The notes under the pieces were generated by a model, which saw nothing but the letters and a program-made list of their open reading frames with translations, searched no databases and was not told the DNA's origin. Below, in pieces: positions 17,629 through 60,606 of a DNA stretch of 64,000 nt; position 1 is the stretch's first letter; every line of letters starts with the position of its first letter. The stretch lies in the NCBI RefSeq assembly GCF_003790525.1, contig NZ_CP033635.1, one strand, 5' to 3'. Both the position numbers and the translations under genes were made by a program. The stretch is from Escherichia coli (GTDB taxonomy: Bacteria; Pseudomonadota; Gammaproteobacteria; Enterobacterales; Enterobacteriaceae).

Positions 17629-17761
17629 GCCGGATGCGGCGTAAACGCCTTATCCAGCCTACGTTCGGCAACGGTTGTAGGCATGATAAGACGCGCAAGC
17701 GTCGCATCAGGCATCGTGCACCGATTGCCGGATGCGGCGTAAATGCCTTATCCGGCCTACA
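17629..17761. repeat. BIME: three REP elements in alternating orientation between aceA and aceK
   Basis: GCCGGATGCGGCGTAAACGCCTTATCCAGCCTAC (17629-17662), an inverted copy at about 17677-17715, and GCCGGATGCGGCGTAAATGCCTTATCCGGCCTACA (17727-17761); this is the well-known aceA-aceK intercistronic REP cluster. Confidence 0.85.
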
Positions 17762-22355: not shown

Positions 22356-23605
<1,250 letters not shown>

Positions 23606-23901: not shown

Positions 23902-24021
23902 ATGCCTGGCAGTTCCCTACTCTCGCATGGGGAGACCCCACACTACCATCGGCGCTACGGCGTTTCACTTCTGAGTTCGGCATGGGGTCAGGTGGGACCA
24001 CCGCGCTAAGGCCGCCAGGCA
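23902..24021 (-). rRNA. rrfE: 5S ribosomal RNA
   Basis: 120 nt; the reverse complement begins TGCCTGGCGGC and ends ...CTGCCAGGCAT, matching E. coli 5S rRNA. Confidence 0.95.
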
Positions 24022-24112
24022 AATTCTGTTTCATCAGACCGCTTCTGCGTTCTGATTTAATCTGTATCAGGCTGAAAATCTTCTCTCATCCGCCAAAACA
24101 TCTTCGGCGTTG

Positions 24113-27017
<2,905 letters not shown>

Positions 27018-27210
27018 TCACAACCCGAAGATGTTTCTTTCGATTCGTCATCGTGTTGCGAAAATTTGAGAGACTCACGAACAACTTTCGTTGTTCAGTG
27101 TTTCAATTTTCAGCTTGATCCAGATTTTTAAAGAGCAAATATCTCAAACGTCACCCGAAGATGAGTTTTGAGATATTAAGGCAGGTGACTTTCACTCACA
27201 AACCAGCAAG

Positions 27211-27286
27211 TGGCGTCCCCTAGGGGATTCGAACCCCTGTTACCGCCGTGAAAGGGCGGTGTCCTGGGCCTCTAGACGAAGGGGAC
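27211..27286 (-). tRNA. gltV: tRNA-Glu in the 16S-23S spacer
   Basis: Reverse complement GTCCCCTTCGTCTAGAGGCCCAGGACACCGCCCTTTCACGGCGGTAACAGGGGTTCGAATCCCCTAGGGGACGCCA (76 nt). Confidence 0.95.
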
Positions 27287-27371
27287 GTATCAGTCTGCTT
27301 CGCAAGACGCCTTGCTTTTCACTTTCTATCAGACAATCTGTGTGAGCACTTCAAAGAACGCTTCTTTAAGG

Positions 27372-28913
<1,542 letters not shown>

Positions 28914-40754: not shown

Positions 40755-40925
40755 AATTTCTTGTCGGAGTGCCTTAACTGGCTGAGACCGTTTATTCGGG
40801 ATCCGCGGAACCTGATCAGGCTAATACCTGCGAAGGGAACAAGAGTTAATCTGCTATCGCATCGCCTTTGCGGCGATCGTCTCTTGCTTCATCCGTCGTC
40901 TGACAAGCCACGTCCTTAACTTTTT
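40755..40925 (+). ncRNA. TPP (thiamine pyrophosphate) riboswitch / thi-box leader of thiC
   Basis: Conserved thi-box elements GGAGUGCC, CUGAGA and ACCUGAUCAGGCUAAUACCUGCGAAGGGAAC at 40765-40839, with an expression platform extending to the thiC ribosome-binding site. Confidence 0.85.
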
Positions 40926-44399: not shown

Positions 44400-45170
44400 A
44401 TGTTACATATTGCGAACAAAACGTTTGATTCACATCTGTTTACTGGCACCGGAAAATTCGCCTCTTCACAACTGATGGTGGAGTCTATTCGCGCTTCCGG
44501 CAGCCAACTGGTGACGCTGGCGATGAAACGCGTCAACTTGCGCCAGCACAACGACGCTATCCTCGAACCGCTTATCGCGGCGGGTGTGACCCTGCTGCCA
44601 AATACATCCGGGGCGAAAACAGCGGAAGAAGCCATTTTCGCCGCCCATCTGGCTCGTGAAGCGTTAGGCACAAACTGGTTAAAATTAGAGATTCACCCTG
44701 ACGCCCGCTGGCTGTTGCCCGATCCCATCGAAACCCTGAAAGCCGCCGAAACGCTGGTACAACAGGGATTTGTCGTGCTGCCTTACTGCGGGGCCGATCC
44801 GGTATTGTGTAAACGTCTGGAAGAAGTCGGCTGTGCAGCGGTGATGCCGCTCGGCGCGCCGATTGGCTCGAATCAGGGACTGGAAACCCGTGCCATGCTG
44901 GAGATTATTATCCAGCAAGCCACGGTTCCGGTGGTTGTCGATGCTGGCATCGGCGTTCCCAGCCATGCCGCGCAGGCGCTGGAAATGGGGGCCGACGCGG
45001 TGTTAGTGAATACGGCGATTGCCGTCGCGGACGATCCCGTCAACATGGCGAAGGCATTTCGTCTGGCAGTAGAAGCAGGCCTGCTGGCACGTCAGTCCGG
45101 ACCGGGCAGCCGCAGTCATTTTGCTCATGCCACCAGCCCGCTGACCGGATTTCTGGAGGCATCGGCATGA
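44400..45170 (+). CDS. thiG: Thiazole synthase
   Basis: 256 aa from the ATG at 44400 ([20 protein letters not shown]...); the ORF track extends upstream in the same frame. Confidence 0.9.
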
Positions 45171-46300
45171 AAAACTTCAGCGATCGCTGGCGACAACTGG
45201 ACTGGGACGACATCCGCCTGCGTATCAACGGCAAAACGGCTGCTGACGTAGAGCGGGCGCTAAATGCCTCGCAACTCACCCGCGACGATATGATGGCGCT
45301 GTTATCGCCAGCCGCCATTGGCTATCTGGAACCACTGGCCCAACGGGCGCAGCGTCTGACCCGTCAACGATTTGGCAACACTGTTAGCTTCTACGTCCCG
45401 CTTTATCTTTCCAATCTTTGCGCTAACGACTGCACGTACTGCGGATTCTCTATGAGCAACCGCATCAAGCGCAAAACGCTGGATGAAGCGGATATTGCCA
45501 GGGAAAGCGCCGCTATACGGGAGATGGGCTTTGAACATCTGCTTTTAGTCACTGGTGAACATCAGGCGAAAGTGGGGATGGATTACTTTCGTCGTCATCT
45601 CCCTGCCCTGCGTGAACAGTTCTCTTCACTACAGATGGAAGTGCAACCGCTGGCGGAGACGGAATACGCCGAGTTAAAGCAACTAGGTCTGGATGGCGTG
45701 ATGGTTTATCAGGAGACATATCACGAGGCGACTTATGCCCGCCATCATCTGAAAGGTAAAAAACAGGACTTCTTCTGGCGGCTGGAAACGCCGGATCGGC
45801 TAGGGCATGCGGGGATTGATAAGATAGGCCTCGGCGCGCTAATCGGCCTTTCCGACAACTGGCGAGTTGACTGCTATATGGTTGCCGAACATTTGCTATG
45901 GCTGCAACAACATTACTGGCAAAGCCGCTACTCTGTCTCCTTCCCACGCCTGCGTCCATGTACTGGCGGCATTGAGCCTGCGTCGATTATGGATGAACGC
46001 CAGTTAGTGCAAACCATCTGCGCCTTCCGGCTGCTTGCACCGGAGATTGAACTGTCACTCTCCACGCGGGAATCACCGTGGTTTCGCGATCGCGTTATTC
46101 CGCTGGCAATTAATAACGTCAGCGCTTTTTCGAAAACGCAGCCAGGTGGCTATGCCGACAATCACCCCGAGCTGGAACAGTTCTCACCACACGACGATCG
46201 CAGGCCGGAAGCGGTTGCTGCCGCGTTAACCGCTCAGGGTTTGCAGCCGGTATGGAAAGACTGGGACAGCTATCTGGGACGCGCCTCGCAAAGGCCATGA
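45167..46300 (+). CDS. thiH: 2-iminoacetate synthase (tyrosine lyase, radical SAM)
   Basis: 377 aa with the CxxxCxxC radical-SAM motif (CANDCTYC); overlaps the thiG stop. Confidence 0.9.
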
Positions 46301-46492
46301 GACAGAATGTAAGAACGTAAATTTATTCCGAGCCGCTACGGAAGATGAAAAACGCAAGGTTGTTGAAAGCGTTGTGTTTTTTTATGGTAGTGCCGTCAGC
46401 AGGAATGTTGTCCAGGGCGAAAAGCTTCTTCCTCGTTTCGCCCTGCCTTTCTTAATATTTCCCATGAAGAATTTGCCCTCTGAATAACACCC

Positions 46493-46520
46493 ATAAAAAA
46501 ACCCGCCGAAGCGGGTTTTT
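46493..46520 (-). terminator. rpoC (rpoBC operon) intrinsic terminator
   Basis: On the minus strand, an AAAAACCCGCUUCGGCGGGUUUUUUU hairpin with a U7 run about 20 nt after the rpoC stop. Confidence 0.85.
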
Positions 46521-46541
46521 ACGTTATTTGCGGATTAACGA

Positions 46542-49500
46542 TTACTCGTTATCAGAACCGCCCAGACCTGCGTTCAGCAGTTCTGCCAGGCTGGCAGATG
46601 CGTCTTCTGCAGTCACCTGCGGTGCAGCCGGAGCTTCACCCGCAGCACGGCGACGCATACGATCCTGGTGGTACGCGTAACCGGTACCTGCCGGGATCAG
46701 ACGACCCACGATAACGTTCTCTTTCAGGCCGCGCAATTCGTCGCGTTTGCCCGCAACGGCTGCTTCGGTCAGCACGCGAGTGGTCTCCTGGAACGATGCC
46801 GCGGAGATGAAGGACTCGGTTGCCAGAGACGCTTTGGTGATACCCAGCAGATCGCGGGAGTAAGTTGCCCCCACTTTGCCGTTCGCTTCCAGTTCGCGGT
46901 TTGCGATCTTGACGCGAGAGTATTCAACCTGTTCACCTTCCAGGAAGTCGGAGCTGCCCGCGTTAACGATGGTAGCTTTACGCAGCATCTGACGAACGAT
47001 AACTTCGATGTGTTTATCGTTAATCTTAACGCCCTGCAGACGGTATACGTCCTGTACTTCGTTAACGATGTAACGAGTAACAGCATGAACACCACGCAGA
47101 CGCAGAATGTCGTGCGGCGCTTCCGGACCGTCGGAAATTACGTCACCACGTTCTACACGTTCACCTTCGAACACGTTGAGCTGACGCCATTTCGGAATCA
47201 TCTCTTCGTACGGATCGCTACCGTCTACCGGGGTGATAACCAGACGACGTTTACCTTTGGTTTCTTTACCGAAGGAAACGATACCGCTGATTTCAGCCAG
47301 GATTGCCGGCTCTTTCGGACGACGTGCTTCGAACAGGTCCGCAACGCGCGGCAGACCACCGGTGATGTCCTTGGTACCGCCGGATTCCTGCGGAATACGC
47401 GCCAGGGTGTCACCAGAGCTGATCTGTACGCCATCTTCCAGCTGAACAATCGCTTTACCCGGCAGGAAGTACTGCGCAGGCATATCGGTACCCGGGATCA
47501 GAACGTCGTTACCCTGAGCATCAACGATTTTCAGTGCCGGACGCAGATCTTTACCACCTGCGGTACGTTCTGCGGAATCCAGAACCACCAGCGAAGACAG
47601 ACCGGTCAATTCGTCGGTCTGACGAGTAATGGTCTGGCCGTCGATCATGTCAGTAAAGCGTACAAAACCGCTTACTTCGGTGATAACCGGCATGGTGTGC
47701 GGGTCCCAGTTTGCAACGGTTTCGCCGCCAGCAACCTGTTCGCCATCGCCTTTCGCCAGTACCGCACCGTAAGGTACTTTGTAGCTTTCTTTGGTACGAC
47801 CGAATTCGTCGATCAGTTTCAGTTCGGTGTTACGGGAAGTGATAACCAGTTTACCGCTGGAGTTCACAACCGACTTCACGTTGCTGAGCTTGATGCTACC
47901 TTTGTTTTTCACCTGGATGCTGGATTCAGCAGCCGCACGAGATGCCGCACCACCGATGTGGAACGTACGCATGGTCAGCTGTGTACCCGGTTCACCGATG
48001 GACTGTGCCGCGATTACACCGATTGCTTCACCTTTGTTGATGAGGTGGCCACGCGCCAGGTCACGACCGTAGCAGTGCGCACATACACCAAAGTCGGTGT
48101 CACAAGATACAACAGAACGTACTTTAACCGCGTCGACAGAGTTCTCTTCCAGCAGGTCACACCACTGTTCGTGCAGCAGCGTGTTGCGCGGAACGAGGAT
48201 ATCAGCAGTACCCGGCTTCAGAACGTCTTCAGCAGTTACACGACCCAATACGCGATCGCGCAGCGGCTCTTTAACGTCACCACCCTCGATAACCGGAGTC
48301 ATCATGATACCTTCATGGGTACCACAATCGTCTTCGGTAACCACCAGGTCCTGCGCCACGTCAACCAGACGACGAGTCAGGTAACCGGAGTTCGCCGTTT
48401 TCAGTGCGGTATCCGCCAGACCTTTACGAGCACCGTGGGTGGAGATGAAGTACTGGAGTACGTTCAGACCTTCACGGAAGTTCGCGGTGATTGGCGTTTC
48501 GATGATGGAGCCATCCGGCTTCGCCATCAGACCACGCATACCCGCCAGCTGACGAATCTGTGCCGCAGAACCACGCGCACCGGAGTCGGCCATCATGTAG
48601 ATGCTGTTGAAGGAAACCTGCTTCTCTTCCTGACCGTCACGGTTAATAACGGTTTCAGTTTGCAGGTTATCCATCATCGCTTTGGATACACGATCGTTCG
48701 CCGCAGCCCAGATATCGATAACTTTGTTGTAGCGTTCGCCCGCAGTTACCAGACCAGACTGGAACTGCTCCTGAATTTCAGCAACTTCTGCTTCTGCCTC
48801 GGAGATGATTTCGTGTTTCTTCTCCGGGATGACCATGTCATCGATACCAACAGATGCACCAGAACGCGCTGCATAGGCAAAGCCGGTATACATGATCTGG
48901 TCCGCAAAAATAACGGTCGGTTTCAGACCGAGAATGCGGTAGCAGGTGTTCAGCATTTTGGAGATTGCTTTTTTACCCAGCGCCTGGTTGACGATGGTGT
49001 AAGGCAGACCTTTCGGTACAATCATCCACAGAATGGCACGGCCAACAGTCGTGTCTTTCAGGCTGGTTTTCGCCACTAATTCACCGTTAGCATCTTTTTC
49101 ATACTCGGTGATACGCACTTTAACGCGCGCATGCAGAGAAGCCAGACCAGAGCGATACAGACGTTCTGCTTCTTTCGGGCCAGTCAGCACCATGCCTTCG
49201 CCTTTGGCGTTAACACAGTCGCGGGTCATGTAGTACAGACCCAGTACAACGTCCTGAGACGGAACGATGATTGGTTCGCCGTTTGCCGGGGACAGGATGT
49301 TGTTGGTAGACATCATCAGCGCACGCGCTTCCAGCTGGGCTTCCAGCGTCAGCGGTACGTGAACAGCCATCTGGTCACCATCGAAGTCGGCGTTATATGC
49401 CGCACAAACCAGCGGGTGCAGCTGGATAGCTTTACCTTCGATCAGTACCGGTTCAAATGCCTGGATACCCAGACGGTGCAGAGTCGGTGCACGGTTCAGC

Positions 49501-50765
49501 AGTACCGGGTGTTCGCGGATAACTTCGTCCAGGATATCCCAAACGACAGCTTCTTCGCGCTCAACCATTTTCTTCGCAGCTTTAATGGTGGTAGCAAGAC
49601 CACGCAGTTCCAGCTTGCCGTAGATGAACGGTTTGAACAGCTCCAGTGCCATTTTCTTCGGCAGACCGCACTGATGCAGACGCAGGTATGGACCTACGGT
49701 GATTACAGAACGACCGGAGTAGTCAACACGCTTACCGAGCAGGTTCTGACGGAAACGACCCTGTTTACCTTTGATCATGTCGGCCAAAGATTTCAGAGGA
49801 CGCTTGTTAGAACCGGTGATTGCACGACCGCGACGACCGTTATCCAGCAGGGCGTCTACCGCTTCCTGCAGCATACGTTTTTCGTTACGTACGATGATGT
49901 CCGGCGCAGCCAGATCCAGCAGACGTTTCAGACGGTTGTTACGGTTAATGACGCGACGATACAGATCGTTCAGGTCAGAAGTCGCGAAACGACCACCATC
50001 CAGCGGAACCAGCGGACGCAGATCTGGCGGCAGTACCGGCAGAACGGTCAGGATCATCCACTCTGGTTTGTTACCAGACTGAACGAACGCTTCCAGCAGT
50101 TTGATACGCTTGGTCAGCTTTTTACGCTTGGTTTCGGAGTTGGTTTCGTTCAGCTCTTCACGCAGCTGTTCGCACTCTTGCTCCAGATCCATGCTCTTCA
50201 GCAGGGCCTGGATTGCTTCCGCACCCATCTTCGCGTCGAATTCGTCACCGAACTCTTCCAGCGCGTCCAGATACTGCTCTTCAGTCAGGATCTGCTGACG
50301 CTCCAGGTTGGTCATACCGCCTTCGATAACCACATAGGATTCGAAGTACAGTACGCGTTCGATATCGCGCAGCGGCATATCGAGCAGCAGGCCGATACGG
50401 GACGGCAGCGATTTCAGGAACCAGATGTGCGCAGTCGGGGAAGCCAGTTCGATGTGGCCCATACGCTCACGGCGTACTTTAGTCTGGGTCACTTCAACAC
50501 CGCACTTCTCACAGATGACGCCACGGTGTTTCAGGCGCTTGTACTTACCGCACAGGCACTCGTAATCTTTTACCGGCCCAAAGATACGGGCGCAGAAAAG
50601 GCCGTCACGTTCTGGTTTGAACGTACGGTAGTTGATGGTTTCCGGCTTTTTAACTTCACCGAAAGACCATGAACGGATCATGTCTGGCGAAGCCAGAGCA
50701 ATTTTGATCGCATCAAACTCTTCGGTTTTAGTCTGCGCTTTCAGAAACTTTAATAAATCTTTCAC
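46542..50765 (-). CDS. rpoC: RNA polymerase beta' subunit
   Basis: 1407 aa, GTG start; [40 protein letters not shown]... Confidence 0.97.
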
Positions 50766-55119: not shown

Positions 55120-55150
55120 AAAAAGGCTGGTGACTAAAAAGTCACCAGCC
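55120..55150 (-). terminator. rplL-rpoB intergenic attenuator (partial terminator)
   Basis: On the minus strand, GGCUGGUGAC-UUUUUA-GUCACCAGCC followed by U5; a second perfect 8-bp hairpin (CAGCCTGA/TCAGGCTG) lies at 55153-55172. Confidence 0.8.
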
Positions 55151-55189
55151 ATCAGCCTGATTTCTCAGGCTGCAACCGGAAGGGTTGGC

Positions 55190-60164: not shown

Positions 60165-60240
60165 TGGTGCTGATAGGCAGATTCGAACTGCCGACCTCAC
60201 CCTTACCAAGGGTGCGCTCTACCAACTGAGCTATATCAGC
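60165..60240 (-). tRNA. thrT: tRNA-Thr (GGU)
   Basis: Reverse complement GCTGATATAGCTCAGTTGGTAGAGCGCACCCTTGGTAAGGGTGAGGTCGGCAGTTCGAATCTGCCTATCAGCACCA (76 nt). Confidence 0.95.
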
Positions 60241-60246
60241 ACATCT

Positions 60247-60321
<75 letters not shown>

Positions 60322-60437
60322 ATCCTGGAACTCGGCTACCTGATTTTCATTCTGCACTGAATATCGAGAGAAGCTCTCTTTATTCGAGCCGGTAAGCGAA
60401 CTTATCGTCTCGGGCTACGCCATCGCGTGGCCGAAAT

Positions 60438-60522
<85 letters not shown>

Positions 60523-60530
60523 GGACTTGA

Positions 60531-60606
<76 letters not shown>

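Follow-up and report, generated by a model that had tools for sequence, protein, structure and literature searches.

The 241-bp rpoC-thiH spacer of Escherichia coli SMS-3-5 lacks the mobile sroH-yjaZ cassette and is probably the ancestral state

In Escherichia coli K-12 MG1655 the genes rpoC and thiH are separated by a protein gene and a small RNA (sRNA) gene, in the order rpoC-yjaZ-sroH-thiH (b3988-b3989-b4691-b3990). In the literature SroH is a trans-acting sRNA without a known function, YjaZ is uncharacterised and the htrC role once given to it has been retracted; our literature search returned nothing connecting yjaZ, sroH and thiH. In a comparison of 27 E. coli/Shigella genomes that included strain SMS-3-5, sroH was tabulated as absent from "B2 + D" (Skippington & Ragan 2012, PMC3318445). 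Here we report on a stretch of E. coli DNA of 64,000 nucleotides (the window; contig NZ_CP033635.1) in which only 241 bp, at 46301-46541, lie between the same two genes. Over 1,001 bp spanning the site, the sequence matches NC_010498.1 (E. coli SMS-3-5) at 100% identity. According to the list of open reading frames (ORFs) and the RefSeq annotation of the SMS-3-5 record, thiH (2-iminoacetate synthase), the last gene of thiCEFSGH, occupies 45167..46300 on the + strand with its stop codon at 46298-46300, and rpoC (RNA polymerase beta' subunit) converges on it from the - strand (46542..50765, stop codon 46542-46544).

The corresponding spacer of K-12 measures 1,161 bp. A first-pass annotation of the window had noted the absence of any ORF of 60 aa or more between the two genes and had pointed to a yjaZ/htrC gene of about 180 codons after rpoC in K-12. 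Both statements are correct: the longest ORF inside the interval is 36-37 aa, and K-12 yjaZ encodes 179 aa and starts 212 bp past rpoC. Alignment to MG1655, a check proposed at the same time, confirms that the K-12 interval is far longer, and it places the whole difference in a single block of approximately 944-947 bp that replaces some 24-27 nt of the window; outside this indel, identity is 97.7-100% on both flanks. In SMS-3-5 the unoccupied insertion site (46452..46479, no strand) consists of TTAA at 46452-46455 followed by a fast-evolving 24-nt spacer at 46456-46479, and in long alleles about 944 nt with sroH and yjaZ stand directly past this TTAA in place of the 24 nt. The flanking genes, the rpoC terminator, the thiH terminator and a two-hairpin element described below are the same in both strains, the difference being the sroH promoter, sroH, yjaZ and the yjaZ upstream region that K-12 carries.

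The missing segment had been read as yjaZ alone. While yjaZ is indeed absent, the segment is a two-gene cassette, and sroH had been overlooked. In K-12, sroH lies on the strand opposite to yjaZ and abuts its stop codon, scoring 201 bits against Rfam RF00372, and YjaZ scores 430 bits against NCBIfam NF007263. The cassette has a GC content of 41.5%, compared with 52.7% for the window. The sroH (RF00372) and YjaZ (PF27200, NF007263) families define the alternative allele at this site, and neither is found in the window. The suggested tblastn search with K-12 YjaZ returned no homologue there (best E 0.43), and a hidden Markov model (HMM) of the YjaZ family had no match in the six-frame translation of the window. 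For sroH, with a covariance-model match of at least 80 bits to RF00372 taken as membership, the window had no Rfam match, whether at the gathering threshold or at E<=5, and no match to an nhmmer profile. Weak Rfam matches within the interval (rsmX, Trp_leader, STnc370, STnc50) fall under their gathering scores and are driven by the terminator. YjaZ and sroH were also not found on the three small SMS-3-5 plasmids or in the first 50 kb of pSMS35_130.

Both alleles are common. Among 5,426 complete E. coli genomes, the contiguous short allele was present in 1,629 (30%) and the K-12 block in 3,741 (69%). Strains with the short allele include ATCC 25922, O25b:H4-ST131, UPEC (uropathogenic E. coli) 536, E. 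coli W and some bovine isolates, the first three of which belong to phylogroup B2. Several records deviate from the two simple states. The match in O157:H7 strains covers only 93% of the K-12 block, being split into two pieces with some 70 bp missing, and the gene carries the annotation "protein HtrC"; in strain ET650 an IS1 transposase is annotated within the matched stretch; identity to the block is only 80-90% in five records; and five matching places are on plasmid records, perhaps as copies of the plasmid type. The lack of sroH-yjaZ in SMS-3-5 is an ordinary and already recorded presence/absence polymorphism, since the absence of sroH from "B2 + D" was tabulated in 2012 from a data set that contained this strain (PMC3318445).

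The direction of the change is a separate matter. The first-pass annotation implied a loss at this site, a direction that is probably wrong. Exact-sequence look-up of ThiH variants to which NCBI gives the names E. albertii, E. fergusonii and E. ruysiae returned six contigs. All six align to the window at 94.4-96.5% identity across 7-11 kb, and in each the spacer is 241 bp long, aligns without gaps and is of the SMS-3-5 type; therefore it is the K-12 state that looks derived. Within E. ruysiae-type sequences, short and long alleles are identical at 52/52 positions to the left of the site and 62/62 to the right, and they differ only by 24 versus 944 nt. Further afield, a scan of species-representative genomes for the 3' end of rpoC gave 35 loci, 23 of them with thiH within reach. 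The spacers in these 23 Enterobacteriaceae loci range from 548 bp to over 6.6 kb, and none contains yjaZ or sroH except that of genome E69. Based on these observations, we consider it likely that the 241-bp spacer is the ancestral Escherichia state and that the cassette was gained later and then spread, with homologous recombination in the conserved flanks as the probable route. SMS-3-5 would then never have acquired, or at least does not carry, the sroH-yjaZ cassette of about 0.94 kb.

Three further comparisons around the site were set aside, as was one candidate relative. A first estimate that the right flanks of short and long alleles are about 57% identical was an artefact of force-aligning non-homologous sequence, as the same-species counts of 52/52 and 62/62 make plain. 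A resemblance of the short-allele spacer to the promoter region of dgc (GGDEF) in other genera was seen in only 1/8 species, at z 2.2. Positions 46472-46487 (TTGCCCTCTGAATAAC) were considered as a relic of the 3' end of an ancestral phosphotransferase system (PTS) IIA gene, but the match reaches only z 1.9, and 14/300 shuffles attain its score; the segment is also missing from long-allele flanks, and MAFFT left it unaligned. Locus L046, initially regarded as an Escherichia relative, belongs to another genus, its thi operon being only 79.6% identical.

Several points weigh against an ancestral short spacer. The species labels of the outgroup contigs come from NCBI protein names and sequence divergence, without whole-genome typing. 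In genome E69, labelled E. coli but E. ruysiae-like, a cassette 93% identical to that of K-12 occupies the same junctions; the rpoC of E69 is 97.1% identical to that of SMS-3-5 (the figures for E. whittamii and K-12 are 98.4% and 99.1%), and its YjaZ variant clusters with variants named E. ruysiae and cryptic-clade Escherichia. It follows that the insertion is old or has passed between species, and a later loss in some lineages is possible. How the cassette inserted is not evident: yjaZ is its sole annotated coding sequence (CDS), with no transposase or integrase that would indicate an insertion sequence (IS) or transposon origin, and direct repeats or a target-site duplication flanking the cassette are not significant (p 0.04-0.14). 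The searches behind the statement that the strain as a whole lacks the cassette covered only the window, the three small plasmids and the first 50 kb of pSMS35_130. Finally, the 2012 survey (PMC3318445) inferred the opposite direction, with sroH lost secondarily from "B2 + D", ATCC 8739 and some Shigella. Our data show the same absence as that survey; they differ in that the outgroup spacers favour gain.

The alternative that follows from the published inference is that the ancestor of SMS-3-5 and of the B2/F/D lineages had sroH-yjaZ and that a deletion left the 241-bp spacer. It draws support from the parsimony argument made in the survey, and from the identical junctions in the E. ruysiae-like genome, where the 7% divergence of the cassette is about that of the species. 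It is hard to reconcile with the gap-free 241-bp spacers of the E. albertii-, E. fergusonii- and E. ruysiae-type contigs, or with the lack of any scar or cassette fragment in the short allele. A recent excision would be expected to leave a short allele with K-12-type flanks, yet among the 5,426 genomes there were 0 such alleles: all 1,628 contiguous alleles were only 80-90% identical to a short allele that we constructed with these flanks. Moreover, the 24-nt spacer specific to short alleles is homologous among four Escherichia species and missing from long alleles, and a deletion therefore could not recreate it. We regard secondary loss as improbable and an ancestral unoccupied site as the better account.

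Two other explanations can be dealt with briefly. A degenerate or misread yjaZ might still be present, in another frame or as the 27-codon ORF (MGNIKKGR..., MGNIKKGRAKRGRSFSPWTTFLLTALP; 46382..46465, - strand) that had been put forward as a possible remnant; apart from the existence of this short ORF nothing speaks for it, and with the tblastn and family-HMM negatives, with all but the first 3-10 nt of the ORF in sequence shared with K-12 (97.7% identical) some 250 bp from K-12 yjaZ, and with its ATG missing in K-12 and E. ruysiae, the proposal has practically no chance of being right, and we regard the frame as a chance ORF. An assembly or collapse artefact in this genome is refuted, to the point of being negligible, by the recurrence of this junction in other species of the genus and in 1,291-1,629 independent complete genomes.

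The patchy distribution of the cassette is accounted for by its being a module of RNA plus protein that moves horizontally. YjaZ homologues (Pfam PF27200, named YjaZ in precomputed hits; NCBIfam NF007263) occur on 577 plasmid records, among them ColE1-type plasmids of 2.46 kb with the homologue as their sole CDS, an IncF plasmid with ParDE genes close to the homologue, and a P1-like phage-plasmid. Homologues are also present on IMG/VR viral contigs, at the edge of an Aeromonas prophage and on a cyanobacterial chromosome (about 50% identity). A chromosomal sroH is listed for K. pneumoniae MGH 78578 (NC_009648) at 4782465-4782645 (PMC3415461, Table S3); the module is therefore also found in Klebsiella chromosomes, away from the rpoC-thiH site, as the K. 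pneumoniae spacer at this site (L049) is without it.

The two genes travel together. A convergent SroH-like RNA accompanies 13/13 close YjaZ homologues examined, within a few tens of bases of the stop codon (the loci are K-12 [L001 1149-1850], plasmids L003-L005, L042 4001-4709, L043 4001-4713, and L050-L055). Small ColE1-type plasmids, a phage-plasmid, viral contigs, the Aeromonas prophage edge and the cyanobacterium are all represented among these homologues. Parts of sroH are better conserved than the coding DNA (92-95% versus 65-85%), and RNAalifold on ten diverse SroH-like copies gave 33 pairs, 16 of them with compensatory changes; the Rfam sroH model annotates the terminator only.

The 241 bp that remain in SMS-3-5 would serve as the punctuation of two convergent operons, combining the rpoC terminator, the thiH terminator, an overlapping promoter-like pair and the two-hairpin element. 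The terminator of rpoC (rplKAJL-rpoBC), which the first-pass annotation rightly placed within the interval, is a bidirectional intrinsic terminator at 46495..46520 (both strands; A7-CCCGC-CGAA-GCGGG-T5, with the CCCGC/GCGGG stem at 46502-46515). It was called by the scan on the + strand, and on the - strand it folds as CCCGC-UUCG-GCGGG followed by U7, in keeping with an intrinsic terminator. Its core of 25-30 nt is 89-100% identical 3' of rpoC in nearly all outgroups sampled. With the A-run/GC stem/T-run symmetry of other bidirectional terminators between convergent operons, it serves rpoC and should also be able to stop + strand transcripts; nothing about it is unusual.

The predicted thiH intrinsic terminator (46347..46383, + strand) is the hairpin AAAAACGCAAG...UUGUGUUUUU running to T7 at 46377-46383. 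RNA folding agrees with the earlier proposal of an AACGC...GCGTT hairpin (46351-46355 and 46369-46373) followed by T7. The stem is GC-poor, and a strict consensus scan made no call. At the same place in other genera a hairpin is kept with a different sequence, usually followed by a T-run, although several genera are without a U-run. Between the thiH stop and this terminator there is also a small hairpin or motif, TTCCGAGCCGCTACGGAA, at 46327-46344, and a CGAGCCGC-like core occupies this position in Enterobacter, Leclercia, Citrobacter and others too.

Downstream of the thiH terminator, 46395-46445 is a structured RNA element in which both hairpins are supported by covariation. Hairpin A (46395..46412, + strand; GTCAGCA-GGAA-TGTTGTC, with GGA in the loop) was delimited from an alignment of 19 distinct sequences. 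Hairpin B (46413..46445, + strand) folds as CAGGGCGAAA, a 13-nt CU-rich loop AGCUUCUUCCUCG and UUUCGCCCUG, its full stem being CAGGGCGAAA/TTTCGCCCTG across 46413-46445. This is the third hairpin of the first-pass annotation, which was right about its existence but placed it about 7 nt too far left (the arms are GGGCGAAA at 46415-46422 and TTTCGCCC at 46436-46443) and treated as a lone hairpin what is part of an element conserved across genera. The element follows thiH in K. pneumoniae and in all 19 distinct sequences, whose sources are some ten named genera together with unclassified Enterobacteriaceae. Paired cells amount to 90.9% for hairpin A, 95.2% for hairpin B and 93.5% for both, compared with 24-41% when the partners are slid. 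In hairpin B, 5/10 pairs have compensatory changes; over the whole element six pairs show double changes, and 0/500 shuffles reach its covariation score. The G-U pairs fit the + (thiH) strand only, and no Rfam family matches the element. Among the three non-coli Escherichia types, differences amount to 0.5% in the element and 15.3% in the adjacent 37 nt (Fisher p = 3e-7), and the element is therefore still constrained, even though the genes that stand 3' of it in other genera are gone.

A promoter-like pair overlaps the thiH terminator (46360..46388, + strand): a -35-like TTGTTG at 46360-46365 and a -10-like TATGGT at 46383-46388, 17 nt apart, which would imply a start near G46395. A -10-like [T/C]AnnnT is located 6-7 nt upstream of the element in 21/21 sequences, including those without a U-run, and in 15/21 it is preceded, at a distance of 17-18 nt, by a TTGnnn located in the terminator loop. 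As a promoter the pair is a candidate only; TTGTTG-17-TATGGT agrees with the sigma-70 consensus at 7/12 positions, and a scan of the window reports 0 promoters, which counts against its firing. On the strength of sequence conservation we lean slightly towards the element forming the 5' end of a transcript that starts near 46395. In the short allele such a transcript would be stopped by the rpoC terminator, acting here on the + strand, and would be about 130 nt long, with a z-score of -3.7 for its predicted fold.

Alternatively, the element, and hairpin B in particular, may belong to the thiH 3' untranslated region (UTR), where it would act as a back-up terminator or block 3' exonucleases, or it may be a palindromic protein-binding site in DNA, with no separate transcript in either case. 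Hairpin B is, after all, on the thiH strand, 113 nt past the thiH stop, and because the first hairpin is without a U-run in several genera, thiH transcripts probably read into the element there; dimeric DNA-binding proteins, too, can maintain palindromes. Such an explanation is possible but doubtful: in most species no U-run follows hairpin B, the strand specificity of the G-U pairs indicates RNA rather than DNA, and the -10-like hexamer holds its fixed distance of 6-7 nt in all 21 sequences, even where the U-run is lacking. A transcript beginning with the element is the reading that we carry forward.

In other lineages the same spacer is hypervariable, and in every lineage the variable cargo starts directly past the two-hairpin element. 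In E. coli and E. ruysiae the cargo is sroH-yjaZ. In E. whittamii it is a 6.4-kb metabolic island (DeoR-PfkB kinase, NCS1 permease, an 895-aa protein and DUF4867), and in Salmonella an SseK/NleB effector gene. Genes for a GGDEF cyclase, PTS IIB and PTS IIA are found there in many genera, and Klebsiella, Enterobacter and their relatives have GGDEF-PTS genes with or without DcuA/DcuB; in Klebsiella the genes 3' of the element are a dCache-GGDEF cyclase and a PTS IIB/IIA pair, which from their sequence appear to have a TATAAT box of their own further downstream. The rpoC terminator of E. whittamii differs from the others.

Elsewhere in the window, the Rfam matches look like the expected features of this chromosomal region. 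They comprise naRNA4 (17680-17757), isrC (23415-23537), an rRNA operon with 5S, 23S, 16S, StyR-44 and the spacer tRNA (23904-28913), the thiamine pyrophosphate (TPP) riboswitch ahead of thiC (40755-40855), a "P26" match some 4.4 kb past the start of rpoC (55124-55185) and four tRNAs (60168-60606).

As a strain difference the short spacer is routine, and it cautions against taking K-12 as the template for what follows rpoC. Its probable history points to a gain of sroH in E. coli and not a loss, contrary to the published inference. The leads worth pursuing are the coupling of SroH with YjaZ and the conserved promoter-plus-hairpin element. The latter is conserved across genera and has no Rfam family, and it may mark an unrecognised transcript beside the essential rpoBC operon. 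The former concerns an sRNA of unknown function and an uncharacterised protein that prove inseparable and mobile, from enterobacterial plasmids to a cyanobacterium, and it provides a testable hypothesis for both.

The literature has treated SroH and YjaZ separately; here the two are always found together, and their sequences may be viewed as those of a dedicated RNA-protein module, perhaps a candidate toxin-antitoxin (TA)-like one. YjaZ had no match in the Pfam-A copy searched, PADLOC, PHROGs or a PDB sequence search and nothing significant in a Foldseek search of the PDB, and its fold resembles RelE/ParE weakly. Since neither PADLOC nor PHROGs places sroH-yjaZ in a known defence or TA family, and since sroH deletion mutants are described in the literature, the TA-like reading is thin. 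More tentatively still, the observations may be joined into one picture, in which SroH and YjaZ would be an obligate mobile pair, a protein with a RelE/ParE-like sheet and its own structured RNA of about 150 nt, forming a new TA- or defence-like kind; the SMS-3-5 spacer would be its unoccupied landing site, in which the promoter-like pair and the two hairpins would yield an RNA of about 130 nt (46395 to about 46525) that ends at a terminator and is still selected in Escherichia. The closest known types for sroH-yjaZ are the TA modules with a convergent RNA, such as par/Fst of pAD1 and txpA/RatA, and, on the protein side, toxins of the RelE/ParE fold.
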